Part shown: piece after piece, positions 11,723 through 37,148 of the stretch
How positions within the stretch are numbered: the first letter of the stretch is position 1
How the letters are laid out: each line of letters begins with the position of its first letter
From: Promicromonospora sp.
GTDB taxonomy: Bacteria > Actinomycetota > Actinomycetes > Actinomycetales > Cellulomonadaceae
Length of the DNA stretch: 64,000 bases
NCBI GenBank assembly: GCA_036010205.1
Contig: DATGOB010000251.1
Coordinates: 844-64,843 of the forward strand
Reading direction: 5' to 3'
Notes under the pieces: model-generated
What the model was told of the DNA's origin: nothing
What the model saw: the letters and a program-made list of their open reading frames with translations, nothing else
Database searches by the model: none
Made by a program: the position numbers and the translations under genes

Positions 11723-13797
11723 CCACGACGACCACGCCGCCCGCCACCACCGGCCCGCCGCCCGAGGCAGCCTCCCCGTGGCACGTCGACGGCACCCGGC
11801 TGACGTGGCGCGGGGGCGGCGAGACGCTCGTCGTCGAACCGTGGGGGGCCGACAGCGCGCGCGTCCGGTCGGCGCAGGGTGAGGTCGTCGACACCGACTG
11901 GGCCCTCCTGCCCGCCCCGGAGGCCGCCGACGCCCGCGTCGAGCTCGACGGCGGCGTCGCAACCCTGGTGAACGGGCGTCTGCGCGTCGTCCTCACCGCG
12001 CACGACCACTACCACTGGCAGGGCGGTCAGCGTCGCTTCCGCTGCCACGTCAGCTTCCAGGACGCCGACGGCCGCGAGCTCCTGGCCGAGCGCGAGTCCG
12101 GCGGCGCCCTCGCGCTGCGCGCCCGCCGGTACGACGCACACCCCGCGGGGGGCTGGCGGACGTCGCTCCTCCTCGAGAGCCCAGCGGACGAGAAGCTCGT
12201 CGGGATGGGCCTGTACCAGCAGGACCACATCGACCTCAAGGGCTGCACCCTCGAGCTCGCCCACCGCAACTCCCAGGCCAGCGTGCCGTTCGTCGTCTCC
12301 AGCGCCGGGTACGGGATGCTCTGGCACACGCCCGCCGTCGGACGCGCGACCTTCGGCCGCAACGGCACCGAGTGGACGGCCGAGGCCGCGCCCCAGATCG
12401 ACTACTGGGTCACGGCAGGCGACACCCCGGCGCAGATCAGCCGCGCGTACGCCGACGCCACCGGCCACGCCCCCGTGATGCCGGAGCGCGGGCTCGGCTA
12501 CTGGCAGTGCAAGCTGCGCTACTCCTCCCAGGAGGAGCTGCTCGAGGTCGCGCGCGAGCACCGGCGCCGCGACCTGCCGCTCGACGTCATCGTCGCCGAC
12601 TTCTTCCACTGGCCCCGGATGGGCGACTTCCGGTTCGACGACGAGTTCTGGCCCGACCCCGCCGCGATGGTCGCCGAGCTGCGCGACCTGGGCGTCGAGC
12701 TCATGGTCAGCGTCTGGCCCCAGGTGGCGCTCACGTCCGAGAACTTCGACGAGATGTCCCGCCAGGGCCTGCTCGTGGCCACCAACCAGGGCATCGACGT
12801 GCAGATGTGGTTCGAGGGCCCCAGCCGGTTCGTCGACACCACGAACCCCCGGGCGCGCGCCTACCTCTGGGACAAGCTCCGCGCCGGGTACGCGCGGCAC
12901 GGCATCCGGACCTTCTGGCTCGACGAGGCCGAGCCCGAGTTCGGCCAGTACGACTTCGGCGCCTACCGGTACGACGCCGGACCGGCGCTCGCGGTCACCA
13001 ACATCTACCCGCAGACGTTCTCCCGCGCCGTCTTCGAGGGTCAGCAGGGCGACGGCGAGACCGAGATCGTCAACCTCGTGCGGTGCGCCTGGGCGGGCAG
13101 CCAGCGCTACGGGGCGCTCCTGTGGTCCGGCGACATCCACTCCTCGTGGACGGCGATGCGCCGGCAGATCACCGCGGGCATCCACGTGGGCGCGGCGGGC
13201 GTGCCGTGGTTCACGACCGACATCGGCGGGTTCGGCGGCGGGCGGACGGACGACCCGGCGTTCCAGGAGCTGCTGGTGCGCTGGTTCCAGATGGGCGCGT
13301 TCATGCCGGTGATGCGCATGCACGGCGACCGGGCGCCCCAGGTGCCGGTCGTGGCGGCGGACGGCAGCCGCCGTCTGCCGTCCGGCTCGGGGAACGAGCT
13401 GTGGAGCTTCGGCCCGGAGAACTACGAGATCCTCGCCCGCTACGTGCGGCTCCGCGAGCGCCTGCGCGACTACACGCGCGACGTCATGCGGGCCGCGCAC
13501 GAGGACGGGCAGCCCGTGATGCGCGGGCTGTTCCACAACTTCCCGGACGACCCGCAGGCCTGGGACGTGGGGGACCAGTTCATGCACGGCCCGGACGTGC
13601 TGGTCGCGCCCGTGACCGAGCCGGGGGCGACGTCGCGCGCCGTCTACCTGCCGGAGGGGGCGCGCTGGACCGACCTGCACACGGGTGCCGTGCACGCGGG
13701 CGGGCAGTGGATCGAGGTAGACGCCCCGCGGCACCTCGTGCCGGTCTTCACGCGTGACGGCGCGTTGTCCGACCTGCAGGGTTACCTCGTGCCCTGA
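11719..13797 (+). CDS. GH31 glycoside hydrolase (alpha-xylosidase-like)
   Basis: [27 protein letters not shown] (nucleophile), WSGDI (acid/base), MRMHG. Confidence 0.9.
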
Positions 13798-13840
13798 ATA
13801 CCCCTTCTTCTCTCGCCACCGCCGACCACCAGGAGAACCC

Positions 13841-15391
13841 ATGGCCACGATCACCGCCGTCGTCAACCTCGACCTGCCCGGACCGACCATCTCCCGCCAC
13901 GTCTACGGACACTTCGCCGAGCACCTCGGACGCTGCATCTACGGCGGCTTCTGGGTCGGGGAGGACTCCGACGTGCCGAACGTGCGCGGCATCCGGCGCG
14001 ACGTCGTCGACGCGCTCCGCGCGATCGGCATCCCGAACCTGCGCTGGCCCGGCGGGTGCTTCGCCGACGACTACCACTGGGAGGACGGGATCGGGCCGCG
14101 CGACCAGCGGCCCCGCATGGTCAACTCGCACTGGGGCGACGTCGTCGAGGACAACTCGTTCGGCACCCACGAGTTCATGGACCTGTGCGAGCTGCTGGGC
14201 GCGGACGCCTACATCAGCGGCAACATCGGGTCGGGCTCGGTGCGCGAGATGAGCGACTGGATCGAGTACCTGACCCGGGCGGACGACTCGCCCATGGCGA
14301 CGCTGCGGCGGGCCAACGGCCGGGACGAGCCCTGGAAGGTGCCGTTCTGGGGGCTGGGCAACGAGGCGTGGGGCTGCGGCGGCAACCTGCGGGTCGAGCA
14401 GTTCGCGTCGCTCGCCCGCCAGTACGCCACGTACACCCGCGACCACGCCGACAACCGCGTGTACCGGATCGCCGCCGGCGCGCACGAGGACGACTACCAC
14501 TGGACCGAGACCCTGATGCGGTCCTTCGACCCGCTCGACCAGGACGACCGCCCGGCCACGCCGTTCCAGGCGGTGTCCCTGCACTACTACACGCGCACCG
14601 GGTCCTGGGCCGAGAAGGGCAGGGCGACCGAGTTCAGCACGGACGAGTGGTATCTCGCCCTGAGCCGCGCGTCCTGGATGGAGGAGCTGGTCGCCCGGCA
14701 CTCGACCGTCATGGACCGGTACGACCCGGCGAAGAAGGTCGGGCTCGTCGTCGACGAGTGGGGCACCTGGTGGGACGTCGAACCGGGCACCAACCCCGGC
14801 TTCCTGTACCAGCAGAACACGCTCCGCGACGCGCTCGTGGCTTCCGTGCACTTCGACGCGTTCCACCGCCACGCCGACCGGGTCGTCATGGCCAACATCG
14901 CCCAGACCGTCAACGTGCTGCAGGCGATGGTCCTCACCGATCCCGAGTCGGGCGCGCTCGTGCTCACGCCCACGTACCACGTGTTCGAGATGAACCGGGG
15001 GCACCACGACGCCGCCGCGCTGGACGTGCACCTCAAGGGCGCGCCGGAGAAGGAGGTCGGCGGGCGCACGCTGGGGCTCGTCTCGGCGTCGGCGTCGACC
15101 CGCGGGGACTCGGCGCTGGTGTCGCTGTCGAACCTCGACGCGGAGACCGCGCACACGGTGACCCTCGACCTCCGCGGGCGGGACGTGGCGGGTCACCGGG
15201 CGCGGGTCCTCACCTCGCCGGAGCTCGCGGCGCACAACACGGCGTCCGCACCCGAGACGGTCGCCCCGCGCGACCACGACGGCGTCCGGCTCCGCGACGG
15301 GCGCCTGGAGATCGACCTGCCGGCCCATTCGTACGTGACGCTGGAGCTGACCCTGTCCCCGGCGCCAAGCCAACCGCTTGTGCCGAGGTAG
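13841..15391 (+). CDS. Alpha-N-arabinofuranosidase, GH51 (AbfA/Abf2-like)
   Basis: [43 protein letters not shown]. The stop TAG is supplied by the first repeat unit of array A. Confidence 0.95.
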
Positions 15392-15503
15392 TCACTTGGC
15401 GAGGTAGTCATCTGGCGAGGTAGTCACTGGGCGAGGTAGTCACGTAGTGCGCGTTGCGCGACTACCTCGCCAGGCGACTACCTCGCCACGTGACTACCTC
15501 GGC
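15382..15503. repeat. Repeat array A: 4 direct + 3 inverted 16-bp-period units (palindromic)
   Basis: CGAGGTAGTCA at 15384, 15400, 15416, 15432; GACTACCTCG at 15460, 15476, 15492. Confidence 0.95.
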
Positions 15504-15543
15504 CCGGTCGGGGCGGGCGCCTGCCCGGGCGGCGTGGTCGAGG

Positions 15544-16014
15544 TCAGGCGCGCGGGCAGACCTTGACGTTGTTCGAGTAGAGGATGCCTTCGTCGCCGAC
15601 GTAGTTCTCGTCCTGCCACGCGAGGCTCACCTTCGCGCGAATGCGTACCTGCTCAGAGGACTTGCAGGCCCACGAGGGGGTGCGTGCGACGTCCTGGACC
15701 GGCTCCCAGGGCTCGTTGTAGGGGTAGGACTCCGCGACGGTCCACCAGATACCGTCCCGCAGGATCTCGAGGTACACCGCGTCGACCCGGACGTCGTAGT
15801 CGCCGCCGCCCTCGCTGTCGGTCACCCGCGCGTGGGCGTTGAACACCCCGGGCTTCGTCATCTCGACGTTGGCGCAGCGGATGACCTCCTCACCCACGCA
15901 GGTGTGCGCGATCTGCTGGGCTGCCGCCGCCGGCGAGGCGATGAGCATGCTCGCGCCCAGCGCGATGCCGAAGGCGGCCGTCAGGACGCGCTTGGTCTGT
16001 CCGTTCTTTCGCAT
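15544..16014 (-). CDS. Small secreted hypothetical protein with 4 Cys, flanked by arrays A and B
   Basis: Sec-type signal MRKNGQTKRVLTAAFGIALGASMLIASPAAAA; mature part has 4 Cys; codon usage appears less GC-biased than neighbours. Confidence 0.75.
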   Translation of the reverse strand: MRKNGQTKRVLTAAFGIALGASMLIASPAAAAQQIAHTCVGEEVIRCANVEMTKPGVFNAHARVTDSEGGGDYDVRVDAVYLEILRDGIWWTVAESYPYNEPWEPVQDVARTPSWACKSSEQVRIRAKVSLAWQDENYVGDEGILYSNNVKVCPRA

Positions 16015-16076
16015 GACGGCAGTCAAACTCGGCGTGGCGGCGCGAGGTTGCAGGATCCTGCAGATCGCCCGGTCGG

Positions 16077-16122
16077 CTGACTACCTCGCCAACTGACTAC
16101 CTCGCCAACTGACTACCTCGGC
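16077..16122. repeat. Repeat array B: 3 units, half element
   Basis: TGACTACCTCG at 16078, 16094, 16110; the last unit ends CCTCGGC as in arrays A and C. Confidence 0.95.
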
Positions 16123-16130
16123 GAGGGGGT

Positions 16131-16145
16131 GGACAACGTTTGTCA
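16131..16145. promoter_or_regulatory. Putative LacI operator upstream of lacI
   Basis: GGACAACGTTTGTCA, sharing the AACGTT core with the sites at 17206 and 17247. Confidence 0.55.
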
Positions 16146-16151
16146 TAGCCT

Positions 16152-17168
16152 GTGCGGATGGAGTTGAGTCGCAGGCCGCCGGGGTTGGTCGACGTCGCGG
16201 CGAAGGCGGGGGTCAGCGTCTCGACGGTGTCGCGGGTACTCACCGGGCGGACGCCGGTCAGCGAGAAGCTGCGCACGAAGGTGCAGGCGGCGGTCGACGA
16301 GCTCGGGTACCGGCCGAACGCCGCCGCGCAGACCCTTGTCAGCGGCAGGCGGTCGGCGATCGGGGTGTTCGCCCGCAACACGGCGCGCTTCGGGTACGCG
16401 GCGACCCTGCAGGGCATCGAGGAGGCCGCCCGTGCCGCCGGCTACGTCGTGATGATCACCGTGGTCGAGTCCGGCCGGCCGGACGACATCGCCCGCGCCG
16501 TGGACATGACGCTCTCCCAGGCGCTCGCCGGTGCGATCGTCATCGAGTTCGACGCGGTCGGCGTCGCCACGCTCGAGGCGTTGCCCGACGTCGTCCCCGT
16601 GGTCGCCGCCGCGGGCGCCCGGCGTGAGCCGGGGCCCCGGCCGCACGCGTTCCTGGACGACGAGGCGGGCGGGCGGGCCGCCACCGAGTACCTGCTCGGC
16701 CTCGGCCACCGGACGGTGCACCACATCGCGATCCCGGCCACCCGGGAGCGCAGCGGGCGCGAGTGGGGGTGGCGCACCGCGCTCGAGGCGGCGGGCGCCC
16801 CGGTCCCGGACGTGGTGTCCGCGGAGTACTCGCCGACGTCGGGGTACGACGCCGCGCAGCGGCTGCTCGAGCAGGACGGTGTGACCGCGATCCTCTGCGG
16901 CAACGACGAGCTCGCGATCGGCGCCGCCCGCGCGCTGTCGGAGCGAGGGCTGCGGATCCCGCAGGACGTCGCCGTCGTCGGGTTCGACGACCAGCCGTTC
17001 GCCGAGATGTGGGTGCCCGCGCTGACGACCGTGGCGCAGGACTTCACCGATCTCGGACGCCGCACCTTCGGCCTGCTGGAGGAGTGGCTGCGCGCCGGCG
17101 AGCGCCCGGCGGACTCCGCGGTGCTGCCGTCGCTCGTGGTCCGGGGGAGCACCGCCGCCCGGGAGTGA
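16152..17168 (+). CDS. LacI family transcriptional regulator
   Basis: LVDVAAKAGVSVSTVSRVL HTH; PQDVAVVGFDD...PALTTV. Confidence 0.95.
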   Translation: MRMELSRRPPGLVDVAAKAGVSVSTVSRVLTGRTPVSEKLRTKVQAAVDELGYRPNAAAQTLVSGRRSAIGVFARNTARFGYAATLQGIEEAARAAGYVVMITVVESGRPDDIARAVDMTLSQALAGAIVIEFDAVGVATLEALPDVVPVVAAAGARREPGPRPHAFLDDEAGGRAATEYLLGLGHRTVHHIAIPATRERSGREWGWRTALEAAGAPVPDVVSAEYSPTSGYDAAQRLLEQDGVTAILCGNDELAIGAARALSERGLRIPQDVAVVGFDDQPFAEMWVPALTTVAQDFTDLGRRTFGLLEEWLRAGERPADSAVLPSLVVRGSTAARE

Positions 17169-17205
17169 CCGGGACCGGCCCGCGCGCGGCGTCGCGCACC
17201 GCCTT

Positions 17206-17265
17206 CTGACCAACGTTTGCAGAATCGCGCGACGGCACGCTACGGTCTGACCAACGTTTTCAGAA
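17206..17265. promoter_or_regulatory. Two putative LacI operators upstream of the GH36 operon
   Basis: CTGACCAACGTTTGCAGAA (17206) and CTGACCAACGTTTTCAGAA (17247), 18/19 identical, 41 bp apart. Confidence 0.7.
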
Positions 17266-17300
17266 CCGGGTCCCGGACCCAGCTCGAAAGGCAACGACGC

Positions 17301-19496
17301 TTGAGCACTCCTGTGACGCGCGAACGCGCCGAGTCCCGCGACGAGGTCGCCTGGCCCGAGGTGGTCCGGCTCGCCGCGGGCGGCGTCGCACTGATCCTCG
17401 CCGTCCCGCGCGACTCCCTTCCGCACGTCGTCCACTGGGGCCCCGACCCCGGCCCTCTGTCGGACGACGAGCTCCGGGCCGTCGCCGCGGCGGCCGTCCC
17501 GCCGCGCGCCACCAACGGCGTGGACTCCGCGGTCGTCGTGTCGGTCCTGCCGGAGGCACGCACCGGCTGGACGGGTACCCCGGGGCTGTCCGGGCACCGG
17601 GCCGGCGCCGGCTGGTCGCCGTGGCTCCGGCCCCAGCGGGTCGACGTCGTCGCCGAGCCCGGGGGAGGGGGCCGCGTCGACGTCCTTGCCGCCGATCCGC
17701 AGGCGGGCCTGCAGGTCGGTGTCCTCGTCGAGATGCTGCCGACGGGCGTCGTGCGGATGCAGGCGCACGTGACGAACACCGGGCCCGGCCCGTACGCCGT
17801 CGAGCGGCTCGACCTCGCGCTGCCGGTCCCGACCCGCGCCGACGGCCTGTGGGACCTCGCCGGACGATGGGCCAAGGAGCGGGTCGTCCAGCACCGCCCG
17901 TTCACCGTCGGCACGCACCTGCGCGAGGGGCGCCACGGCCGCACCGGCGCCGACGCCGCGACCCTGCTCGTCGCGGGCACCCCCGACCTCGGGTTCGCCG
18001 AGGGGGAGGCCTGGGGCCTGCACGTGGCGTTCAGCGGGAACCACCGCGTCGCCGCCGAGCGGGTCTTCTCCGGCGAGCGCCACCTGCTCGGCGGCGAGCT
18101 CCTGCTGCCGGGCGAGGTCGAGCTCCAGGAGGGCGAGACGTACCGGTCGCCGAAGCTGTTCGCCGTGTACGGTGCGGGCCTCGACGGGATGGCTGCCCGC
18201 CTGCACAGCCACCTGCGCGCCCGGCCGCACCACCCCCGCACGCCGCGCCCCGTGGTGATGAACGTGTGGGAGGCCGTGTACTTCGACCACGACCTCCAGC
18301 GGCTGCTCGACCTCGCCGAGCTCGCGGCCGACGTCGGCGTCGAACGGTTCGTGCTCGACGACGGGTGGTTCAGCAGCCGCCGCGACGACACCTCGGGTCT
18401 GGGGGACTGGGTGGTCGCGGACGCCGTCTGGGGGCAGGGCCGGTTCCGGACGCTGGTCGACGCGGTCAAGGGCCGCGGCATGCAGTTCGGCCTGTGGCTC
18501 GAGCCCGAGATGGTCAACCTCGACTCCGACGTCGCCCGCGCGCACCCGGACTGGATCCTGCAGCTCCCCGGCCGGATGCCCGTCGACTTCCGCCACCAGC
18601 AGGTCCTGGACCTGTCGCACCCCGATGCGTTCGCCCACGTCCGGGACCAGATCCTGGCCCTGGTGCGCGAGTACGGCATCGACTACGTGAAGTGGGACCA
18701 CAACCGCGACCTGATCGACGCCGGGTCCACCCGCACCGGCCGCGCCGGCGTGCACAGCCAGACCCTGGCGGCCTACCGCCTGCTCGACGAGATCCGGTCG
18801 GCCGCACCCGGCCTGGAGATCGAGTCGTGCTCGTCCGGCGGCGCGCGCATCGACCTGGAGATGATCGAGCACACCGACCGCGTGTGGGCCTCCGACTGCA
18901 TCGACGCGCGCGAGCGCCAGCAGATCCAGCGCTGGACGGCGCAGCTCCTGCCGCCCGAGCTGGTCGGCAGCCACGTCGGCGCCGGGCGCGCCCACACCAC
19001 CGGGCGGCAGCTCGACCTCGGCTTCCGTGCCGCCACGGCGCTGTTCGGCCACTTCGGCGTCGAGTGGGACCTGACCGACGCGACCCCCGCCGAACGGACG
19101 GAGCTCGCGGCCTGGATCCGGTTCTACAAGGAGGTCCGGTCCCTGATCCACACCGGCACCGTGGTGCGCCGCGACGTCGAGCACGGCGACCTGTGGGTGC
19201 ACGGCGCCGTCGCGCCGGACCGGCGCGACGCGCTGTTCGCCGTGACGCTGCGCGAGCGCCACGTCACCTGGCCCGCCGGCCGGGTCCCGATCCCCGGCCT
19301 GCGCCGCGACCTCACCTACCGGGTCAGTGCCGCGGGCCCCGGTTCGGACGCGCCGTACGACGACCGCGTCCACCCCACGTGGTGGGCCACGGGCCTCGAG
19401 CTCAGCGGCGCGGTCCTGGCCGACGTCGGCGTGCACGTGCCGGCGCTCGACCCTGACCACTCGGCTCTCCTGCGGATCGAGGCGATGCCGCGATGA
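17301..19496 (+). CDS. Alpha-galactosidase, GH36
   Basis: VMNVWEAVYFD, FVLDDGWF, FGLWLEPEMVN, YVKWDHNR, ESCSSGGARID, WASD. TTG 17301 chosen as start; the ORF track gives 17217. Confidence 0.95.
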   Translation: MSTPVTRERAESRDEVAWPEVVRLAAGGVALILAVPRDSLPHVVHWGPDPGPLSDDELRAVAAAAVPPRATNGVDSAVVVSVLPEARTGWTGTPGLSGHRAGAGWSPWLRPQRVDVVAEPGGGGRVDVLAADPQAGLQVGVLVEMLPTGVVRMQAHVTNTGPGPYAVERLDLALPVPTRADGLWDLAGRWAKERVVQHRPFTVGTHLREGRHGRTGADAATLLVAGTPDLGFAEGEAWGLHVAFSGNHRVAAERVFSGERHLLGGELLLPGEVELQEGETYRSPKLFAVYGAGLDGMAARLHSHLRARPHHPRTPRPVVMNVWEAVYFDHDLQRLLDLAELAADVGVERFVLDDGWFSSRRDDTSGLGDWVVADAVWGQGRFRTLVDAVKGRGMQFGLWLEPEMVNLDSDVARAHPDWILQLPGRMPVDFRHQQVLDLSHPDAFAHVRDQILALVREYGIDYVKWDHNRDLIDAGSTRTGRAGVHSQTLAAYRLLDEIRSAAPGLEIESCSSGGARIDLEMIEHTDRVWASDCIDARERQQIQRWTAQLLPPELVGSHVGAGRAHTTGRQLDLGFRAATALFGHFGVEWDLTDATPAERTELAAWIRFYKEVRSLIHTGTVVRRDVEHGDLWVHGAVAPDRRDALFAVTLRERHVTWPAGRVPIPGLRRDLTYRVSAAGPGSDAPYDDRVHPTWWATGLELSGAVLADVGVHVPALDPDHSALLRIEAMPR

Positions 19497-20398
19497 CCTC
19501 CACAGCAGCCGCACCCCAGCGGCTCGTCCGCCGGTGGGGCGACCTGCCCGTCGCCGCCGTGTTCATCGCGCCCGCCGCGCTCGGCTTCCTCGCCTTCTAC
19601 CTGGTGCCCGCGCTGCGCGGCATCTGGTTCAGCCTCACCGACCAGAACCTCGTGGGATCCGGCACCTTCATCGGGACGGCGAACTACCAGGAGATGTTCG
19701 CCGACCCGCTGTTCTGGAACGCGCTGAAGGTCACGGCCTGGTACGTCGTGATCAACATCGGCGTGCAGACCGTGCTCGCGGTGGGGATCGCCGTCCTCAT
19801 GCACCGGCTGACCCGGTCGGCGCTGGTGCGCGGCATCATCCTGCTGCCGTACCTCGTGGCCAACGTCGTCGTCGCCCTGGTGTGGTTCTGGATGATGGAC
19901 TACTCGACCGGGTTCATCAACGTCGCCCTCGACTGGGCCGGGCTGGACCGGGTCGCGTTCTTCGGCAACGAGGCGCTCGCGATCCCGACGATCGCCCTCA
20001 TCAACGTGTGGCGGTACGTCGGCTACACGGCGCTGCTCGTCTTCGCGGGCCTGCAGACGATCCCCGGCCAGCTCTACGAGGCCGCCGCGCTGGACGGCGC
20101 CTCCGAGCCGCGGATGTTCTGGTCGATCACGCTGCCGCTGCTGCGGCCGGTGCTGGCCCTCGTGCTCGTCATCACCGTCGTCGGCTCGTTCCAGATCTTC
20201 GACACCGTGGCCGTGACGACCGAGGGCGGGCCGATCGACTCGACGCGGGTCATCTACTACTACATCTACCAGCAGGCGTTCGAACGCTTCGACCTCGGCT
20301 ACGCCTCCGCGATGTCGGTCTTCCTGCTGGTCGCGCTCGCCGTCGTGGCCTACTTCCAGCTCAAGATCATGCGCTCGAACCAGTCGGACCTGGCCTGA
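19493..20398 (+). CDS. ABC sugar permease (MalF-like)
   Basis: QLYEAAALDGAS EAA loop, GSFQIFD. Confidence 0.93.
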   Translation: MTSTAAAPQRLVRRWGDLPVAAVFIAPAALGFLAFYLVPALRGIWFSLTDQNLVGSGTFIGTANYQEMFADPLFWNALKVTAWYVVINIGVQTVLAVGIAVLMHRLTRSALVRGIILLPYLVANVVVALVWFWMMDYSTGFINVALDWAGLDRVAFFGNEALAIPTIALINVWRYVGYTALLVFAGLQTIPGQLYEAAALDGASEPRMFWSITLPLLRPVLALVLVITVVGSFQIFDTVAVTTEGGPIDSTRVIYYYIYQQAFERFDLGYASAMSVFLLVALAVVAYFQLKIMRSNQSDLA

Positions 20399-20407
20399 GG
20401 AACCCTG

Positions 20408-21370
20408 ATGACCACCATCACCACGCGCGACGACGACGTCGCAGCAGGCACCCGCGCGACCGACGAGGAACCGCCCCGCAGGCGGTCCCGGCGTCGGCGA
20501 CCGAGCTGGGGCCGCGTGCTGGCCTGGGCGGCGCTCGGCGTCCTGCTGCTGGTCACGCTGTTCCCGTTCTACTGGATGCTGCGCACCGCGCTGTCGACGA
20601 ACACGGCGCTGTACGGCAGCCCGGGCAGCCTGCTCCCGGTCGAGCCGACCTGGGGCGCGTTCGAACGGGTGCTCGGCACCGCGACGCCGCAGGAGGCCGC
20701 CGCGGAGGGCGGGACGACCGGGTCGATCGACTTCTGGCTCTACCTGCGCAACTCCGTCGTCGTCGCCACGGCGATCACGCTCGGGCAGGTCTTCTTCTCC
20801 AGCCTGGCCGCCTACGCGTTCGCGCGGCTGCGGTGGCCCGGCCGGGACGCGGTGTTCTTCCTCTTCCTCACCGCGCTCATGATCCCGCCGATCTTCGTGC
20901 AGCTGCCCAACTTCATCCTCGTGCGCGACCTGGGGCTGCTGAACACCCTGACCGGCATCGTGCTGCCGTTCTTCTTCATGACGCCGTTCGCGGTGTTCTT
21001 CATGCGCCAGTTCTTCCTCGGCATCAGCCGGGAGGTCGAGGAGTCGGCGCGGATCGACGGCGCGGGGCACGGCCGGATCTTCTTCCAGATCATCCTGCCG
21101 ATGTCCAGCACGCCGCTGTTCACGCTCGGCCTGCTGACCTACGTCACGGCCTGGGGCGAGTACTTCTGGCCACTGCTGGTCGGGCGCGCGGACGAGTCGC
21201 GCGTGCTGACGGTGGCGCTGGGGATCTTCCGGTCGCAGACCCCGCAGACCGGCCCCGACTGGGCGGGACTCATGGCGGGCACGCTGATCGCGGCCCTGCC
21301 GGTGTTCGTCCTGTTCGTCGTCTTCGGACGCAAGCTCATCGACAACCTCGGCTACTCCGGCATCAAGTAG
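20408..21370 (+). CDS. ABC sugar permease (MalG-like)
   Basis: EVEESARIDGAG EAA loop, WGEYFWPL. Confidence 0.93.
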   Translation: MTTITTRDDDVAAGTRATDEEPPRRRSRRRRPSWGRVLAWAALGVLLLVTLFPFYWMLRTALSTNTALYGSPGSLLPVEPTWGAFERVLGTATPQEAAAEGGTTGSIDFWLYLRNSVVVATAITLGQVFFSSLAAYAFARLRWPGRDAVFFLFLTALMIPPIFVQLPNFILVRDLGLLNTLTGIVLPFFFMTPFAVFFMRQFFLGISREVEESARIDGAGHGRIFFQIILPMSSTPLFTLGLLTYVTAWGEYFWPLLVGRADESRVLTVALGIFRSQTPQTGPDWAGLMAGTLIAALPVFVLFVVFGRKLIDNLGYSGIK

Positions 21371-21372
21371 CC

Positions 21373-21409
21373 GGCATCACGCAACTGGCATCACGCAACT
21401 GGCATCACG
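21373..21409. repeat. Short tandem repeat, 14-bp unit x2.6
   Basis: GGCATCACGCAACT at 21373 and 21387, GGCATCACG at 21401. Confidence 0.9.
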
Positions 21410-21424
21410 ACAGAGAGGTCTGCC

Positions 21425-22774
21425 ATGAACCACCTGCCCCGACGGCGGCGCGCCCTCGCGCTGGCCGCCGTCCTGCCCGTGGCGCTCGCCGGGTGCGGCG
21501 CGTCCGGCGACACCGGCGCGTCCGGCGACTCGATCACGTACTGGCTGTGGGACACCAACCAGCAGCCCGCGTACGCACAGTGCGCCGCCGACTTCCAGGA
21601 GAAGACCGGCATCGAGGTCACCATCGAGCAGTACGGCTGGGCCGACTACTGGCAGGGCCTGACCACGGGTTTCGCCTCCAGCACCGCGCCCGACGTGTTC
21701 ACCGACCACCTGTCCTACTTCCCCGAGCTCGCCGCGCAGGGCCAGCTGCTGGACCTCGGCGACCGGATCGAGGAGGACGGGCTCGACCTGTCGATCTACC
21801 AGGACGGCCTCGCCGACCTGTGGGTCGGGCAGGACGGCGGCCGCTACGGCCTGCCGAAGGACTTCGACACCGTCGGCCTGTTCTACAGCGAGGAGGCGGT
21901 GGCCGACGCCGGGTACACGCCCGAGCAGCTCGCCGAGCTCGAGTGGAACCCCGACGACGGCGGCACGTTCGAAGAGCTGGTCGCCGCGCTGACCGTGGAC
22001 GAGGACGGCACCCGCGGCAACGAGCCCGGCTTCGACAAGGAGAACGTCGCCGTCTACGGTCTCGCCCTGAGCGGCAACGGCCTCAACGCGGCCGGCCAGC
22101 AGACCTGGGCGCCGTACGCCCTGAGCAACGACTGGTACTTCGGCGACACCACGCCGTGGACCACCGAGTGGAACTTCGACGACCCCCGGCTGGTCGAGAC
22201 GCTGACCTGGTACAAGCACCTCATCGACGAGGGGTACGTGCCGTCGGTCGACATCGCGCTCAGCGAGCAGGACCCGCTGAACGGCTACCTCGCCGGCCGC
22301 TACGCCGCCGTCACCGACGGGAGCTGGATGAACAGCTCCTACCTCGGTCAGGACGACGTGCCGACGAAGGCCGCGCCGACCCCGATCGGGCCCGGCGGCG
22401 AGCGGGCGAGCCTCTTCAACGGCCTGTCCGACGGCATCTGGGCGGGCACCGACAACCCGGACGGCGCCTGGGAGTGGGTCAAGTACCTCGCCTCCGCCGA
22501 CTGCCAGGACGTCATCGCCGAGTCCGCCGTCGTCTTCCCCGCGATCAAGACCTCCACGGAGAAGGCCGAGCAGGCCTTCGCCGACAAGGGCTGGGACGTG
22601 GACGCGTTCACCCGCCAGGTGGACGAGGGCACTACCGCCCTGCTGCCCATCGCCGACCACTGGTCGGAGACCAACGACACCGTCACCGCGGCCATCGAGG
22701 CGTTCCTCAAGGGAGCCCGCGGCCCGGAACAGCTCACCGAGGCCAACGACGCGGTGAACGCGTTGTTCGAGTGA
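21425..22774 (+). CDS. ABC sugar-binding lipoprotein
   Basis: Lipobox ALAGC; YGLPKDFDTVGLFY; SBP family 1 pattern. Confidence 0.92.
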   Translation: MNHLPRRRRALALAAVLPVALAGCGASGDTGASGDSITYWLWDTNQQPAYAQCAADFQEKTGIEVTIEQYGWADYWQGLTTGFASSTAPDVFTDHLSYFPELAAQGQLLDLGDRIEEDGLDLSIYQDGLADLWVGQDGGRYGLPKDFDTVGLFYSEEAVADAGYTPEQLAELEWNPDDGGTFEELVAALTVDEDGTRGNEPGFDKENVAVYGLALSGNGLNAAGQQTWAPYALSNDWYFGDTTPWTTEWNFDDPRLVETLTWYKHLIDEGYVPSVDIALSEQDPLNGYLAGRYAAVTDGSWMNSSYLGQDDVPTKAAPTPIGPGGERASLFNGLSDGIWAGTDNPDGAWEWVKYLASADCQDVIAESAVVFPAIKTSTEKAEQAFADKGWDVDAFTRQVDEGTTALLPIADHWSETNDTVTAAIEAFLKGARGPEQLTEANDAVNALFE

Positions 22775-22790
22775 CGGAGCCCGTCCTGCT

Positions 22791-22833
22791 GTCCGCACGT
22801 CCGTCCGCACGTCACATCAGCACGTCACATCAG
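22791..22833. repeat. Nested short duplications upstream of the GH39-like gene RBS
   Basis: GTCCGCACGTC x2 (12-bp period) and GCACGTCACATCA x2 (13-bp period) just before AAGGAG. Confidence 0.8.
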
Positions 22834-22841
22834 AAGGAGCG

Positions 22842-25523
22842 ATGATGGTCCACCTGATCCCCGTCCGCCTGATCTCCGCCCGGCGAAGAGCTGCCACCCG
22901 CGCTGCGGCCGTGGCCGGCTGCCTGGCCCTCGGAGGGAGCCTGCTCGTGGCGACCGCCCCCACCAGCGCCTTCGGCGCCGACGCCGCCGAGCAGGTGCGC
23001 GTCGACTTCTCCGCCCCGACCGGCGCCGTCCACGGCGGCGCCACCGGCGTCCTGTACGGGCTGTCGGACCACGAGGTGCCCACGACCGCCGTCGTCGCCG
23101 GGGCGGCGCCCCGCACGGTGACGCAGATGCCCGAGGGCGGTCTGCAGCACCCGAACGGCGGCGCCCTGAGCGTCTCCGAGACGTTCTTCGCCTCGGGCGG
23201 CGCCGACATCTACATCAACATCCAGGACTACTACCCCAAGTGGGGGTACGCGAACGCCGAGGACCCGCCGAACACGTACCCGGGGCAGGCCGACTTCCTG
23301 GACAAGGTCCGCACCGTCGTCGAGCGCGTCGCCCGCGAGGCCGACCCTGACGAGCTCGACCGGTACGTGTTCACGCCCTTCAACGAGCCCGACTGGATCT
23401 GGTACGGCGACTGGTCCGCCCAGCGCGAGCGGTTCCTCGCCGACTGGGAGGCGGCCTACGAGCTGATCCACGAGATCATCCCCGGCGCGCGCATCGCGGG
23501 CCTCGGCGAGGCCAACTACAACCCGCAGCGCGTCACCGACTTCATGACGTGGGCCGCCGAGCGCGACGTGCTGCCCGACATCATGACCTGGCACGAGCTG
23601 GACGGCGAGGACCTGGGGACGTTCTCCGGGCACCTGGAGCACTTCCGTGCGCTCGAGGAGTCCCTCGGCCTGCCCGAGACGCCGGTCAACATCACGGAGT
23701 ACTCGCCCTGGCGCAGCGACACCGGCGTGCCGGGCCGGATGATCCGCTGGATCTCCCTGTTCGAGACCCACAAGGTCGACGCCGAGATGGCCTACTGGAC
23801 CGCGGCGGGCAACCTCAGCGACCACACCTCCCGCACCCAGGGCGGCAACGGTGCCTGGTGGCTGCTCAAGTGGTACGGCGACCTGGCGGGGCAGACCGTG
23901 GACATGACCGTCCCCCGGCCGGAGACGCCCGGGACGCTGCAGGGCCTCGCCGCCCTCGACGAGGACCGGCGCAAGGGCACCGTCCTGCTCGGCGGCACCG
24001 ACCAGGCCGTCACCGTCGACGTCGAAGGGCTCGCACCCTCGGTGTTCGGCAAGGAGGTCGACGTCCGCCTCGAGCGCACCCGGTTCACCGGCCAGGAGGG
24101 CCTCGGCGGTGCGCCGCAGACCCTCTCGGTCGAGCGCGTGCGGGTCGGCGCGGACGGCGGGCTCGACGTCGACGTGCCGGCGGGCACCGAGATGGACGCC
24201 TACCAGGTGACGATCACGCCGTCGGCCAAGGGGGCGGTCCCGGCGGCGGACGCGGCCTGGTCGCAGAGGACCGAGGCCGAGGCGATGCGGCTGGACGGCG
24301 GGGCGTACGCCGCCACGCAGGAGGGCACCTATGCGACGTCCGGCGGCCGGGACGTGCGCGGCCTGACCACCGCGGCGGGCAGCCTGACCTGGGACGTCGA
24401 CGTGCCCGAGGCGGGCACCTACCGGCTCGACGTCTACCACGGCACCGGCGCAGCGGTCCCCGGGCAGGACAGGAGCCGCACCTCGGGGCGGCACGCGCTG
24501 TACGTCGGTGACCGACTCGACCAGGTCGTCCAGTACACCTCGACCCTCACCGACACCTACAAGGGCCTGACCAGCGTGCTCGTCGAGCTCCCTGCCGGCA
24601 CCTCGACGCTGTCCCTGCGCACCAGCGCCGACGACGGCGCCACCGCGCTGCCGGGCAGCGACCTCGCGATCGACGTCGTCGACCTCGTCGCCGTCGACGG
24701 GCCCGAGACGTCGTCCTACCCGGCGTCGTCCGCGCGGACCACCGGTGAGGCGACCGTCCGCCCGTCCGACGGCGGGCGGCTCCACCTCGCACCCGGCGCG
24801 CGGGCCGAGTTCTTCGTCGTCGCCCAGGAGGACGGCTACTACACGCTCGACGTCGACACCGGCTCGGCCGCGGGCGGTGGCGCCTACGGGCTCGCCGTCG
24901 ACGGCCGTGCGATCGAGGGTGCCGCCACCCGGCCGGGCCGCGACGGGCGCACCACCGTGACCCTCCACCTCGGCCGCGGCATGCACCAGGTGCACGTCAC
25001 CGCGGAGCGCCGGCTCGGCGTCGACGGGCTGCGGCTCACCCGGGACACCGCCGCCGACGAGCACGCCACCGTCGTCCAGGCGGAGGACCCGTCCGTGCGG
25101 CGCAGCGAAGGGGTGACGGTCGAGACCCCGCCCGCGGCGTCGGGCTCGAACGTCCAGGGCGAGTACGTCGGGTGGCTGACCGCCGGGCGGACGATCACCG
25201 TCCCGCGTCCGTCCGGCGCCGCGCCGGGTGACTACGACATCGGGCTCACCTACGCGAACGCCGACAAGTTCACCGGGCACCCCTACAACGCGGACATCAT
25301 CTCCCGCACGGCCGACATCCACGAGGAGGGCTCCGACACCACGAGCACCGTCGCGTACCAGCACACCTACAGCGACTACAGCTTCTGGACCCGGACGACC
25401 CCGCTGCGGCTGACCACGGCGGACGGCGACATCGTGATCGGCAACCCCGACGGCGACGCGCCGAACATCGACGCGGTGACGATCGCCCCGTTCGTCGTCG
25501 CCGTCACCACCACCCCCCGCTGA
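22842..25523 (+). CDS. Secreted clan GH-A (GH39-like) glycoside hydrolase with C-terminal CBM35/CBM6-like domains
   Basis: Signal peptide; PFNEPDW (acid/base), TWHEL, NITEY (nucleophile); repeated EAEA/QAED-initiated beta-sandwich modules ending PNIDAVTI. Confidence 0.75.
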   Translation: MMVHLIPVRLISARRRAATRAAAVAGCLALGGSLLVATAPTSAFGADAAEQVRVDFSAPTGAVHGGATGVLYGLSDHEVPTTAVVAGAAPRTVTQMPEGGLQHPNGGALSVSETFFASGGADIYINIQDYYPKWGYANAEDPPNTYPGQADFLDKVRTVVERVAREADPDELDRYVFTPFNEPDWIWYGDWSAQRERFLADWEAAYELIHEIIPGARIAGLGEANYNPQRVTDFMTWAAERDVLPDIMTWHELDGEDLGTFSGHLEHFRALEESLGLPETPVNITEYSPWRSDTGVPGRMIRWISLFETHKVDAEMAYWTAAGNLSDHTSRTQGGNGAWWLLKWYGDLAGQTVDMTVPRPETPGTLQGLAALDEDRRKGTVLLGGTDQAVTVDVEGLAPSVFGKEVDVRLERTRFTGQEGLGGAPQTLSVERVRVGADGGLDVDVPAGTEMDAYQVTITPSAKGAVPAADAAWSQRTEAEAMRLDGGAYAATQEGTYATSGGRDVRGLTTAAGSLTWDVDVPEAGTYRLDVYHGTGAAVPGQDRSRTSGRHALYVGDRLDQVVQYTSTLTDTYKGLTSVLVELPAGTSTLSLRTSADDGATALPGSDLAIDVVDLVAVDGPETSSYPASSARTTGEATVRPSDGGRLHLAPGARAEFFVVAQEDGYYTLDVDTGSAAGGGAYGLAVDGRAIEGAATRPGRDGRTTVTLHLGRGMHQVHVTAERRLGVDGLRLTRDTAADEHATVVQAEDPSVRRSEGVTVETPPAASGSNVQGEYVGWLTAGRTITVPRPSGAAPGDYDIGLTYANADKFTGHPYNADIISRTADIHEEGSDTTSTVAYQHTYSDYSFWTRTTPLRLTTADGDIVIGNPDGDAPNIDAVTIAPFVVAVTTTPR

Positions 25524-25535
25524 CCCCACCACCCA

Positions 25536-25651
25536 CCACCCAACCCCGCCGAGGTAGTCATCTGGCGAGGTAGTCATGTGGCGAGGTAGTCATGTGGCGC
25601 GCTGCGTGACTACCTCGCTGCGTGACTACCTCGCCACGTGACTACCTCGGC
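25536..25651. repeat. Repeat array C: 3 direct + 3 inverted 16-bp-period units
   Basis: CGAGGTAGTCA at 25550, 25566, 25582; TGACTACCTCG at 25607, 25623, 25639; C-rich left flank. Confidence 0.95.
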
Positions 25652-25719
25652 GGGTGGGTGACGTAGGGTTTCGGGCGGCCCGGGATCTCGGGTTCTTCGC
25701 GCTCCCGGAGGTGCCCGCT

Positions 25720-26277
25720 GTGTCGTACGTCGTCCGCCGCGCCTCCTCGTCGGAGCTGGACCACGCGGCGCGCGTGCTCGCCGCTGCGTTCGACGACTAC
25801 CCGTGGACGCGATGGGCGTTGCCCGCCACTGGATACCGGGAGCGCCTCGAGGAGGTCCAGCGCCTGTACCTGGGCCACGCCGCGGACCACGGGACGGTGC
25901 TGGTCGACGACGGTCTGCGCGCGGTCGCAGCCCTCCTGCCGCCGGACGCGCCGGAGCCCGCCGAGGCGGTCGCGCACCGCGTGGCAGAGCTGCACGGGCA
26001 GCGGTGGGCGTCGCTCGCGGCGCTCGATCTCCCGACGCTGCCGCCCGACGCGTGGGTACTGGCGACCGTCGGGGTGGACCCGGCGCACCGCGGAGCCGGG
26101 CTCGGGACGGCGGTGGTGCGCGCGGGGCTGACGGTCGCCGACGAGGCGGGCGCGCCGGTCGGTCTGGAGACGTCGGACGAACGCAACGTGCGCCTGTACG
26201 AGCGGCTGGGGTTCGCGACGGTCGCTGTCACGCAGGTTCCGGACGGTCCGGTCGTCCACACGATGATCCGTGCCTGA
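25720..26277 (+). CDS. GNAT N-acetyltransferase (puromycin-acetyltransferase-like), flanked by arrays C and D
   Basis: GTG 25720 after GGAGGT; LATVGVDPAHRGAGLG acetyl-CoA motif, LETSDERNVRLYERLGF; the stop TGA is the first base triplet of array D. Confidence 0.9.
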   Translation: MSYVVRRASSSELDHAARVLAAAFDDYPWTRWALPATGYRERLEEVQRLYLGHAADHGTVLVDDGLRAVAALLPPDAPEPAEAVAHRVAELHGQRWASLAALDLPTLPPDAWVLATVGVDPAHRGAGLGTAVVRAGLTVADEAGAPVGLETSDERNVRLYERLGFATVAVTQVPDGPVVHTMIRA

Positions 26278-26330
26278 CTACTTCGCCAGATGACTACTTC
26301 GCCAGGTGACTACCTCGCGGGTTTGGGTGG
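26275..26330. repeat. Repeat array D: 3 units, half element with G-rich tail
   Basis: TGACTACTTCG at 26275 and 26291, TGACTACCTCG at 26307, then GCGGGTTTGGGTGG. Confidence 0.92.
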
Positions 26331-26358
26331 GCGGCTCCTGCCGGAGGAGGAGCCGCCC
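26329..26358. terminator. Hairpin, likely terminator between convergent GNAT and lipase genes
   Basis: GGGCGGCTCCT-8nt-AGGAGCCGCCC, a perfect 11-bp stem. Confidence 0.65.
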
Positions 26359-26369
26359 TGCCCGGTCTG

Positions 26370-27386
26370 TCAGTCGCGCGAGCCGGACCTCACCCACGCG
26401 TCGTAGTCGACCCCCTTCTGCTTCGCCAGCGTGCGCAGTCGTTCCTCGGTCGGCGGCTGGAAGAGCTTCGGCGTGATGTGCCGGTCCTGCGCGGCGTACG
26501 TCCGCTGGAGCGCGGCCTGCTCGGCGGCGTCGTCCTGCGCCGCGGCGAGGACGGCGGGCGTCGCGGCCGCACTCGTGCCGGTCAGCACCCCGCTGACCAG
26601 CGGCAGGTAGCCCTCCGAGTGGCCCAGGCGGTTGGGGTGGTACGACTCACGGATCGGGTTGGAGAACCCGTTGATCCACTCCGTCGAGTCGCACACCGCG
26701 TGACCGGTGAACCGGCTGACGGGGTTGACGAACGTGAAGCCCCTGGCGGAGGCCGCCGAGGCGATGACGGAGTTGATGAGCACGACGGCGTCGTTCAGCG
26801 CCGCCTCGTCCTCCGGGCTGAAGAAGGTCGCGAGGTTGCAGTCCTCGCCCATGAAGATCTTCGGGTAGCCCACGACGACGACCTTGGCGTTGGGTGCCTT
26901 CGTCCGGATCCCGGAGTACAGCGTGCTGAGCCGGCCCGGGAGCGTGCCGTTGATGAACGAGCGCGCGCCCGCGACGGCGCCGGCACAGTCGCTGGCCCAC
27001 GCGGGCAGCGCGCACTCGGTGAGGACGTCGGCGAAGCCGGCGTCGTTGCCGCCCACCGAGATGGTCACGAACCGGGTGCTCGAGCTGAGCGCGCTGAGCT
27101 GGGTGTTCTGCACGTCGGCCACGACGGCGCCCGAGCAGGCGCGGAAGTTGAGCGTGTAGTTCTTGGCCGCCGCGGTGAGGCTGGCGTAGGCGTAGGTCGA
27201 CCGCAGGCACTCGGTCCCGTCGTCGATGTACGTCCTCGTCCCGGTGCCCGAGGAGTAGGAGTCGCCGAGGGCGACGTAGGACTCGCCGGCGGCGTGCGAC
27301 GGCTGGGCCGGTGACGTCACGAGTCCGATGGTGGCCAGGCTGGTCGCCGCGATGGCTCCGACGATGCGTAACAGGTGTCGCTTCAT
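26370..27386 (-). CDS. Secreted SGNH/GDSL lipase/esterase
   Basis: Signal peptide; YVALGDSYSSG, SVGGNDAGF, ESYHPN. Confidence 0.92.
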   Translation of the reverse strand: MKRHLLRIVGAIAATSLATIGLVTSPAQPSHAAGESYVALGDSYSSGTGTRTYIDDGTECLRSTYAYASLTAAAKNYTLNFRACSGAVVADVQNTQLSALSSSTRFVTISVGGNDAGFADVLTECALPAWASDCAGAVAGARSFINGTLPGRLSTLYSGIRTKAPNAKVVVVGYPKIFMGEDCNLATFFSPEDEAALNDAVVLINSVIASAASARGFTFVNPVSRFTGHAVCDSTEWINGFSNPIRESYHPNRLGHSEGYLPLVSGVLTGTSAAATPAVLAAAQDDAAEQAALQRTYAAQDRHITPKLFQPPTEERLRTLAKQKGVDYDAWVRSGSRD

Positions 27387-36047: not shown

Positions 36048-37064
36048 TCATCCGCCGGGTGCATGCATAGGGGTGAAGACGCGCTCACGGTGCCACCTCA
36101 GGTACTTCTCGGACGGTGCGACCGTGGGCGGCTCGAGAACGATCTTCCGCCGCAACCCCGCTCCCGCGAAGTAGCGGGCGGTCTCGGGGACCTGGTCCGC
36201 CGCCGACCGGAGCCGGTGCGACATCGTGACCGTCAGGTGGTCGCCCGAGGGCTCGAGCGTCATCAGCCCCGCGTCGAAGGCGGCGTCGTGCGTGGGGCAG
36301 GCCGCGACGCCGTTGGCGACGTCGACACGCTCGCCGTCGCTCGAGTCGCGCCATGGCTTGATGTGCCCGGCGCGCAGGAGGGTAGGCCGCAGGCCGTCGC
36401 CCAGCGTGAAGCCGCAGAAGGCGCAGGCGCCGCCGTAGTTGCGCAGCACCTGGTTGGCGAAGGCGCTCTGCCCGATGCGCAGCATCTGCACGAACGCGCG
36501 CTCGGTCGCGCTGTCGGTCGGCTCGTGCTCGGGCAGGAGCGCGGGGAGTTCGCGTTCGAGCACGGCCTGCAGGTCGTCGTCGCTGAGCTCGTCCTGGCCG
36601 AGCAGGACCACCGTGCCGCGGTAGTGCTCGACGCCGAGGAAGTCGGGCAGGCGGTCGGTGCCGATGCCCAGGTTTCGCGCGGCGGCGAGGATGGTGCGGT
36701 AGAGGTCGACCAGCGCCGGTGGGGAGGCGGCTAGCAGTCGCCCGAGCTCGATGTCGGTCCTCGCCCCGCGGTTGCGTCCCGGTACGCCGGACAGGTTCTG
36801 CACCTTCGAGGCGACCGCGTTCGGCTTGCGGCGGAAGAGCCGCGCCAGCTCTGGTACGGGGTAGGGGAACTTCCGGTCCCCACCGCCTGCCCGAACGTTG
36901 GCGACGAGCCGGACGGCGCCGGCCAGGAGCGTCTCGACCGGAAGATGGTTGACCCGTCCTTGTCCCGAGGCCGGTCCAGGGGCCAGGTCGGGGCGGGTCA
37001 GGATCTCCCGCCACTGCTGCTCCGCCTGGACGATGGTGAGGTCGAGGTAAGCGGAGAGGGGCAC
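36048..37064 (-). CDS. HNH endonuclease (HNH_2 type, putative restriction/defence nuclease)
   Basis: RIGQSAFANQVLRNYGGACAFCG...LRAGHIKPW...NGVAACPTHDAAFDAGL...YLRWHRERVF; N-terminal helical domain with ELARLFRRKPNAVASKVQNL; GTG start at 37064. Confidence 0.85.
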   Translation of the reverse strand: MPLSAYLDLTIVQAEQQWREILTRPDLAPGPASGQGRVNHLPVETLLAGAVRLVANVRAGGGDRKFPYPVPELARLFRRKPNAVASKVQNLSGVPGRNRGARTDIELGRLLAASPPALVDLYRTILAAARNLGIGTDRLPDFLGVEHYRGTVVLLGQDELSDDDLQAVLERELPALLPEHEPTDSATERAFVQMLRIGQSAFANQVLRNYGGACAFCGFTLGDGLRPTLLRAGHIKPWRDSSDGERVDVANGVAACPTHDAAFDAGLMTLEPSGDHLTVTMSHRLRSAADQVPETARYFAGAGLRRKIVLEPPTVAPSEKYLRWHRERVFTPMHAPGG

Positions 37065-37148
37065 GCCGCCAGCCTCTGGTACCGGGCGGGGCCCGTCAAG
37101 GCGGAATTTTCTCTGGACCCCGCCCCCACCCTGCACCACCATCGCTCC

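Follow-up and report, generated by a model that had tools for sequence, protein, structure and literature searches.

A dispersed family of modular extragenic palindromes in Promicromonospora and an IS30-family insertion sequence that targets its repeat unit

Four arrays of one short repeat unit, designated A, B, C and D, were analyzed in a 64,000-nucleotide stretch of Promicromonospora sp. DNA (GenBank assembly GCA_036010205.1, contig DATGOB010000251.1, positions 844 to 64,843), referred to below as the window. These arrays were found to belong to a family that is real, well defined and, as far as can be found, apparently not described before, and the TAG in the core of its unit was identified as the specific target of an insertion sequence (IS) of the IS30 family. 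A preliminary description of the window had interpreted the arrays as boundaries of captured gene cassettes. Taken together, the results presented here indicate that the arrays are probably members of a dispersed, lineage-specific family of extragenic palindromes that resemble repetitive extragenic palindromic (REP) elements and that the cassette-like look of the window reflects four consecutive spacers with family members.

The core of the unit, GAGGTAGTCA, was present 20 times in the window when up to one mismatch was allowed, compared with 1.6 occurrences expected from dinucleotide shuffles. Nineteen of these 20 units fell in the four arrays, each with a period of 16 bp according to Tandem Repeats Finder (TRF), and the twentieth was a solitary one-mismatch copy at 44504. 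The arrays and the flank that precedes one of them were as follows.

15382..15503 (cores 15385-15500), no strand: array A, full palindrome (4 forward units, 3 reverse units)
15385-15442, 15443-15458 and 15459-15500: forward cores, 16-nt centre and reverse cores of array A, with outer boundaries GCC and GGC
16078..16122 (cores 16078-16119), no strand: array B, half array (3 reverse units)
25524..25547, plus strand: C-rich flank (a run of CCCACCA heptamers) between the stop codon of an 893-aa gene and array C, a typical outer flank of the repeat family
25548..25651 (cores 25551-25648), no strand: array C, full palindrome (3 forward units, 3 reverse units)
26275..26319 (cores 26275-26316), no strand: array D, half array (3 reverse units)

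From left to right, the order in the window was array A (four forward, then three reverse units), a gene for a 160-aa protein, array B (three reverse units), a 9.4-kb LacI-GH36-ABC-GH5/39 block (GH, glycoside hydrolase; ABC, ATP-binding cassette), array C (three forward, then three reverse units), a gene for a GNAT acetyltransferase and array D (three reverse units). The preliminary description had reported this order and period, had seen no array elsewhere in the window and had noted that a variant of the outermost unit (GCCGAGG/CCTCGGC) in arrays A, B and C confers polarity; all of these observations were borne out, the last throughout the family (see below). Array C was almost perfectly self-complementary, including its linkers. 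Predicted RNA folds had energies of -100.1 kcal/mol for array A (z = -12) and -108 kcal/mol for array C (z = -16.6), and no hairpin above chance was predicted for either array B (z = -1.6) or array D. The outer boundary of array B (CCTC-GGC and a G-rich flank) faced the LacI operator while its inner end was abrupt, 51 bp upstream of the 160-aa gene. A search of Rfam gave no family matching the arrays, a match to mir-1421 (E = 0.085) being set aside since it merely reflects the hairpin. The heptamer flank before array C (CCCACCA / CCCTCCA) was longer in P. citrea (L069 18185-18228; L numbers designate the loci compared) than in the window (25524-25547). Repeats unrelated to the 16-bp family were also noted in the window, i.e., a perfect 14-bp tandem repeat, GGCATCACGCAACT x2.6, at 21373-21409 between the permease and solute-binding-protein genes and 13-bp and 15-bp repeats at 22791-22882 between the binding-protein and 893-aa genes.

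The spread of the family was evident from a scan of species-representative genomes in which two adjacent exact cores were required. At least 68 loci were recovered, and arrays were present at no fewer than 66 Promicromonospora loci besides the window. Among the matches listed, P. citrea ATCC 15908 contributed 48 and two genomes of the P. iranensis group 15, with single loci in P. panici, P. soli and a further Promicromonospora, while matches from Phycisphaerales (L032) and Streptosporangiaceae (L060) were dismissed as unrelated tandem repeats with other spacers. The window was approximately 95% identical to P. citrea over 7260-28198, and here P. citrea matched it in gene order, had all of the genes around the arrays and had an array at each of the four places; more distant species were without this synteny. 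Arrays were absent from 84 kb of sequence from four other Promicromonospora species, from 0.7 Mb made up of three more Promicromonospora loci and metagenomic contigs fetched with an arabinofuranosidase query (in which the best relatives were just 80% identical), from viral contigs of IMG/VR and from plasmids. A TRF search of other actinobacterial loci for analogous modular palindromes found none, and nothing relevant was found in the literature on Promicromonospora intergenic repeats.

The anatomy of the family was determined from 78 arrays, i.e., those of the Promicromonospora loci and the window, which comprised 51 full palindromes and 27 halves. Each element consisted of a C-rich flank, an outer unit marked by GCC, a variable number of 16-bp modules and a short centre, followed by the mirror image, and each module consisted of the 10-bp core GAGGTAGTCA and a 6-bp linker, nnnGGC. 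Forward units preceded reverse units in 80 of 80 arrays of at least two units (two from unrelated contigs of metagenome-assembled genomes), with no instance of the opposite order, and the spacing was exactly 16 bp in 249 of 258 neighbouring same-sense unit pairs. The GCC prefix was present on 94 of 127 outermost units as opposed to 1 of 254 inner units (inner prefixes: GGC, 206; AGC, 43; GCC, 1). Beyond the terminal unit, flanks were C- or G-rich for approximately 6-15 nt (50% C on the left, 53% G on the right). Flank complementarity was 7.67/20 for the same locus and 7.31/20 for different loci, and insertion of elements into pre-existing hairpins was rejected because flanks from the same locus were not more complementary than flanks from different loci. 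Centres were variable, many with cccagcgcgaNctggg-type loops and some loopless (e.g., GAGGTAGTACTACCTC). GTAG occurred in every unit, repeated along the stem and not at the 5' foot of each hairpin, the position of the conserved GTAG in REP elements.

Linkers matched across the two arms in 20% of comparisons, compared with 11% by chance, and adjacent linkers within one arm were identical in 34 of 128 cases (27%). The weak matching between arms indicates that the stem is a chain of 13-bp helices split by small internal loops, and the frequent identity of adjacent linkers indicates that arms grow by local duplication. Since 16 mod 3 = 1, three modules set TAG (forward) or TGA (reverse) in all three frames.

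The importance of gene 3' ends for the placement of the family was evident from the spacers occupied. Full elements with both neighbours called lay in 28 convergent, 14 tandem and 0 divergent spacers, as compared with a rough 1:2:1 baseline that is our own assumption, so that the bias to gene 3' ends was very strong. Most terminal units (first or last) lay at -22 to +30 bp from the neighbouring stop codon, and many stop codons lay inside a unit. In the window, the TAG of unit 1 of array A (15389-15391) was the stop codon of an arabinofuranosidase gene, and the TGA of unit 1 of array D (26275-26277) was the stop codon of the GNAT gene. Family members lay outside predicted genes, with the exception of one questionable case, and genes sandwiched by two arrays elsewhere were a miscellany (DUF3592, TetR with DUF4267, GPP34, NmrA/DUF2867 and TspO). 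Where cassette boundaries had been envisaged, the genome search revealed a dispersed intergenic family situated mostly at the convergent ends of ordinary genes. Position, polarity, hairpin stability and the avoidance of promoters suggest that the arrays may act as bidirectional terminators or stabilizers at transcript 3' ends; at the least, the elements are tolerated only at such ends.

On contig 5 of P. citrea (L061, 569-1882), an open reading frame (ORF) of 385 aa was bounded exactly by two half arrays, one forward and one reverse, and its TGA stop codon lay in the first reverse unit. This was the only gene seen inside a palindrome, and it belonged to no Pfam or NCBIfam family and to no transposase family.

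Comparisons between relatives showed arrays at the same sites that differed in units and linkers, which indicates that positions can be old while the interior turns over fast, in the manner of a variable number tandem repeat (VNTR). In P. iranensis (L027) and P. citrea (L038), which had an array at the same site within 4.4 kb of collinear flanking sequence (82% identical), the numbers of forward and reverse units were 3+2 and 5+3, respectively, and at a site shared by two P. iranensis-group genomes (L008 and L026) they were 2+3 and 2+2. Similarly, array A had 4+3 units in the window as opposed to 2+2 in P. citrea, array C had 3+3 as opposed to 5+2, and both linkers of array B had changed together, from gccaac in the window to gccacg in P. 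citrea or the reverse. Two P. citrea loci with unrelated flanks (L035 and L057) had a distinctive 41-nt centre in common, identical at 36 of 41 positions, from which it follows that whole elements are copied between loci. In four metagenomes with a near-identical strain, contigs broke at arrays A, B and C and one crossed array D unchanged. The precise units that gene capture would predict, i.e., relatives lacking a gene together with its half array, were not seen among the contigs of those four metagenomes, the listed joints being dismissed as artefacts of short, G+C-rich contigs matched at 90% likeness.

The specificity of the IS30-family element for the repeat unit was apparent at several P. 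citrea loci. On the complete contig JBHSVD010000003.1 (L069 18991-20275), a 1285-bp IS split array D and encoded a 359-aa transposase with HTH_38 and rve domains, which scored 253.7 bits against the NCBIfam IS30 model (cut-off 80). Its junctions, with a slash at the point of insertion, were TGACTA/GGCGGATTCAATCGG... and ...CAGTTGAATCCGCC/CTACCTC, i.e., the IS lay within unit 2 of 3 and was bordered by a 3-bp duplication of CTA. Array D of the window was the intact, empty site for this insertion, and no copy of the IS was present in the window. The inverted repeats of the IS, GGCGGATTCAA(T/C)(C/T)GGTGGT(T/C)GCAACACC, were unrelated to the array units. The draft assembly of P. citrea had four contig ends within the IS, each abutting a unit at the same position (GAGGTAG/IS or IS/TAGTCA). 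Four distinct junctions of IS end 2, all at GAGGTAG/ or TGACTA/, denote at least four independent copies in both orientations, among loci that were selected for having arrays. These data show that this IS specifically targets TAG within the core. Contig ends in the IS were noted at L007, L010, L021, L022 and L048, and the IS is why several draft P. citrea contigs end there.

The genes that adjoin the arrays in the window were as follows.

13754..15391, plus strand: alpha-L-arabinofuranosidase-like gene (Pfam Alpha-L-AF_C, 8.7e-47), ending within unit 1 of array A, likewise in P. citrea
15544..16026, minus strand: gene for a secreted 160-aa protein that belongs to a narrow family (no Pfam family; 22 homologues), between arrays A and B
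16152..25523, plus strand: GH36 block with genes for LacI, a GH36 alpha-galactosidase, two ABC permeases, a solute-binding protein and an 893-aa protein, between arrays B and C
25654..26277, plus strand: GNAT acetyltransferase gene (Pfam Acetyltransf_1, 1.4e-9), between arrays C and D
26370..27386, minus strand: SGNH/GDSL hydrolase (lipase) gene (Pfam), a core gene of the genus, convergent with the GNAT gene

To the left of array A were a GH31 gene and the arabinofuranosidase-like gene. Homologues of the 160-aa gene (66-72% identity) were present in three other Promicromonospora species in a uvrA-gene-osmC-uvrC-rapZ context without arrays, and similarity of the window locus to these homologues was limited to a promoter palindrome, TGCAGGnTCCTGCA, and the ORF. 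Upstream of the 160-aa gene, the palindrome TGCAGGATCCTGCA (16040-16075, minus strand) was kept as TGCAGGTTCCTGCA in the uvrA-linked homologues of the three other species and is probably an operator or promoter element that travelled with the gene. The GH36 block, in which the 893-aa protein was GH5/39-like with a CBM35 domain (Pfam; PDB 8uwt/5u22), was kept as a unit in Nocardioides luteus (GH36 79% identical) and in a JGI contig (81%) with different flanks and zero repeat units. Its best 120 GH36 matches included no other Promicromonospora species. Similarity of the block began at the LacI operator, 12 bp from array B, and stopped at the stop codon before array C. A LacI-type operator-like palindrome, GACAACGTTTGTC (16130-16150), located upstream of the LacI gene was conserved in N. 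luteus and the JGI metagenome contig.

The SGNH hydrolase gene had its own hairpin (approximately 26325-26360) between its stop codon and array D. Its orthologues were 80-88% identical in many Promicromonospora species, in which the neighbours were different and arrays were absent; at the lipase loci of four other Promicromonospora species, neighbours differed in all and no empty array site was definable. Further to the right, a 602-aa protein with an HNH_2 endonuclease domain was encoded at 36048-37856 (minus strand), with a third-position G+C of 0.83, below that of its neighbours, and no flanking arrays; an HNH_2 protein was also encoded near the lipase orthologue of P. thailandica (L074). 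The region from 52000 to 56000 was approximately 80% G+C with long overlapping ORFs that belonged to no Pfam family, and similarity to P. citrea contig 159 (L004, 83-87%) was confined to 53972-55049 and then ceased, which denotes a strain difference. Sequence near-identical to window positions 13800-17200 and 24800-26400 (up to 96% of sampled 31-mers) was present in many public metagenomes from soil, compost, sludge, manure and wastewater and also in compost metatranscriptomes. To judge from these matches, the window strain or a very close one is widespread.

The favoured explanation accounts for these observations as follows. At the 3' end of a transcript, RNA of a full element would form a very long hairpin that terminates or stabilizes both converging transcripts, while TAG or TGA in all three frames would close any reading frame that entered the element. 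Units would turn over through slippage or unequal exchange, a copying enzyme would act in trans, and half arrays would arise from breakage or rearrangement at or near the centre of the palindrome. The window would represent a rearranged, partly horizontally acquired sugar-utilization region in which each of four consecutive non-operonic spacers holds a family member.

Several results weigh against this explanation. Array B sits in a divergent promoter region. A scan for canonical terminators found nothing at the arrays, as the hairpins are without a U-tract, and termination by such hairpins in actinobacteria is debated. The 16-nt unit GAGGTAGTCAnnnGGC is not self-complementary, a palindrome being formed only by a whole forward and reverse array, and the half arrays (27 of 78) cannot form a hairpin. 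Inner ends of half arrays were located directly after a core in 13 cases, after a linker in 14 and within a core in 1, and simple deletion is no explanation for such stops at unit and linker boundaries. Direct repeats indicative of target-site duplication were not in excess when 51 full elements were compared with cross-locus controls (offsets 0-15, k = 2-6). No RAYT (Y1 HUH) protein was encoded among the 41 ORFs of the window or among the genes sandwiched by or beside the arrays examined. Lastly, the match of all four window arrays to junctions between blocks is left as chance combined with regional plasticity.

The reading advanced in the preliminary description, that gene capture or recombination takes place at the arrays, with cassettes of a gene and a half array moved by an enzyme encoded in trans or by homologous exchange from array to array, is unlikely, and gene capture was not supported by the present results. 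As that description had stated, none of the 41 ORFs in the window encoded an integrase or transposase, nor was a tyrosine recombinase or rve protein found in the 64 kb; the window contained no RAYT, integrase or HNH gene bordered by the repeats, the HNH_2 protein lying 10 kb away without arrays. Arrays were scattered over at least 66 further loci, most of them between ordinary convergent genes and with the 3'-end bias noted above, one lay inside intact cross-species synteny, and the genes sandwiched elsewhere were miscellaneous, so that much of what the preliminary description had itself named as evidence against capture was observed. In the window, the putative cassettes differ 18-fold in size (0.5 to 9.4 kb), include promoters or operators and a regulator of their own and occur in both orientations, and exchange between full palindromes would regenerate only full ones, never halves. 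Nor were deletion forms seen in the metagenomes with a near-identical strain. On the other hand, all four window arrays lie at junctions of blocks with different histories: the 160-aa gene resides elsewhere (uvrA-osmC) in three species, the GH36 block is closest to Nocardioides with no other Promicromonospora species in its best 120 matches, and the neighbours of the lipase gene vary in four species. The exact match of block ends to arrays carries little weight, however, since intergenic DNA would not be alignable across genera and the borders are resolved only as far as such DNA can be aligned. Also consistent with capture are the non-random inner ends of half arrays, the local clustering of arrays, the integration of an IS into units and the module of full palindrome, gene and half array in the same sense, which had been noted in the window and recurred at L045 and L064. 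Of the original proposal, therefore, the part that concerned insertion sites stood to the extent that an IS30-family element enters the units and arrays border blocks with differing histories, whereas the gene-capture system did not. Array-associated rearrangement via palindrome breakage or IS activity may take place, but is a minority reading. A version in which the arrays are preferred breakpoints and landing pads, because long palindromes break at their centres and the IS30-family element homes to TAG, and in this way become de facto gene-capture sites, can be entertained only tentatively; it would explain both the existence of orphan half arrays, whose inner ends are precise to the unit, and the separation of blocks of different origin by all four arrays in the window.

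Quite unlikely is an explanation in which a 13-bp motif, GGCGAGGTAGTCA, is the recognition site of a protein, tandem units give cooperative binding and the hairpin is secondary. Candidate binders would include those of a species-specific uptake or self-recognition signal (as in Neisseria DNA uptake sequences, DUS), a nucleoid or segregation protein and the helix-turn-helix domain of an IS30-family transposase. Such binding agrees with the strong conservation of the core as opposed to the freely varying linkers, with the strict 16-bp register (249 of 258 pairs), with recognition of a fixed position in the unit by the IS30-family element and with the persistence of half arrays that lack hairpin potential and are conserved between strains. 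Since arm linkers are barely complementary beyond chance (20% versus 11%), full pairing is not strongly selected. However, no candidate protein is known, the order of forward then reverse units and the avoidance of divergent promoters better match a hairpin at transcript ends, and the absence or rarity of the family in most congeners sampled argues against a core cellular function. Very unlikely is the proposal that the arrays are a family of miniature inverted-repeat transposable elements (MITEs) derived from a DDE transposon with multiple subterminal transposase-binding repeats (Tn7- or Mu-like) and mobilized in trans. Inverted arms of direct repeats with a distinct terminal unit are the layout of transposon ends with several transposase sites, and whole elements have been copied between loci. 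Against this, target-site duplication was not detected (offsets 0-15, k = 2-6), the sole IS seen has unrelated inverted repeats (GGCGGATTCAA...), approximately 0.6 Mb of Promicromonospora DNA contained no full-length element with array ends, and the 385-aa gene between half arrays at L061 belongs to no transposase family.

A dispersed REP-like family in Promicromonospora is of wider interest since REP-like elements and their mobilization are understood almost only in Proteobacteria, to which the present family adds an actinobacterial case. Its build is unusual, each arm being made of direct 16-bp modules with a marked module at its end; stop codons occur in every frame, and an IS30-family element is a dedicated guest. 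The family offers a tractable system for the spread of palindromes without a recognizable RAYT, for giant hairpins without a U-tract as transcript ends in high-G+C bacteria and for target choice by IS30-family elements. The arrays also break short-read assemblies and could serve as VNTR loci for strain typing.

Among known systems, integron cassettes share with the window the separation of genes by imperfect palindromes (attC) in an arrangement that looks serial. In contrast with integrons, however, there was no intI, attI, Pc or attC core site or layout, flanked genes kept their own promoters and regulator in mixed orientation and in blocks of up to 9.4 kb, and most family members were located beside ordinary chromosomal genes. 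Mycobacterial interspersed repetitive units (MIRUs), which are also VNTR loci, are similar in that they are actinobacterial intergenic tandem units that differ in number between close strains and overlap neighbouring stop codons, but they measure 46-101 bp and lie in a single orientation within operons, whereas the present modules measure 16 bp and form inverted arms. Neisseria DUS resemble the present arrays as short specific motifs that occur in inverted orientation as terminator-like hairpins downstream of genes, but have no tandem 16-bp register. DUS also occur as inverted pairs behind genes. The likeness to MITEs lies in the inverted terminal arms with conserved GCC-GAGGTAGTCA and the difference in the lack of target-site duplication in the Promicromonospora elements.

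The closest likeness was to REP sequences, bacterial interspersed mosaic elements (BIMEs) and REPINs of Proteobacteria. These short G+C-rich extragenic repeats are likewise found at many loci, fold into hairpins and favour gene 3' ends and convergent spacers; they also contain GTAG, form clusters that vary in copy number, are kept at certain orthologous sites and attract insertions of specific IS as hot spots. REPs are known to serve as IS targets and to prefer convergent spacers (PMC1525189). Like the REP-targeting elements IS1397, ISKpn1, IS621, ISPpu9/10, ISPa11 and ISRm22, the IS described here inserted independently at a fixed repeat position, in either orientation and in a harmless landing site. 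It differed from them in family (i.e., IS30) and in its target, as it enters the TAG of a tandem module and duplicates 3 bp; a 2006 survey of REP-targeting IS listed the IS3, IS110, IS4, IS256 and IS5 families, IS30 not being among them (PMC1525189). The arrays themselves also differ from REPs. The Promicromonospora 16-bp unit is not palindromic whereas a basic REP is a 20-40-nt imperfect palindrome, the arms are direct tandem arrays with a marked outermost unit in an actinobacterial host whereas REPs alternate, and no RAYT was present in the window or beside any array examined whereas REPINs are mobilized by RAYT Y1 transposases. With a non-palindromic unit, no target-site duplication and no RAYT seen, the family belongs to neither group and is most suitably classed as a variant of the REP/BIME-MITE kind.

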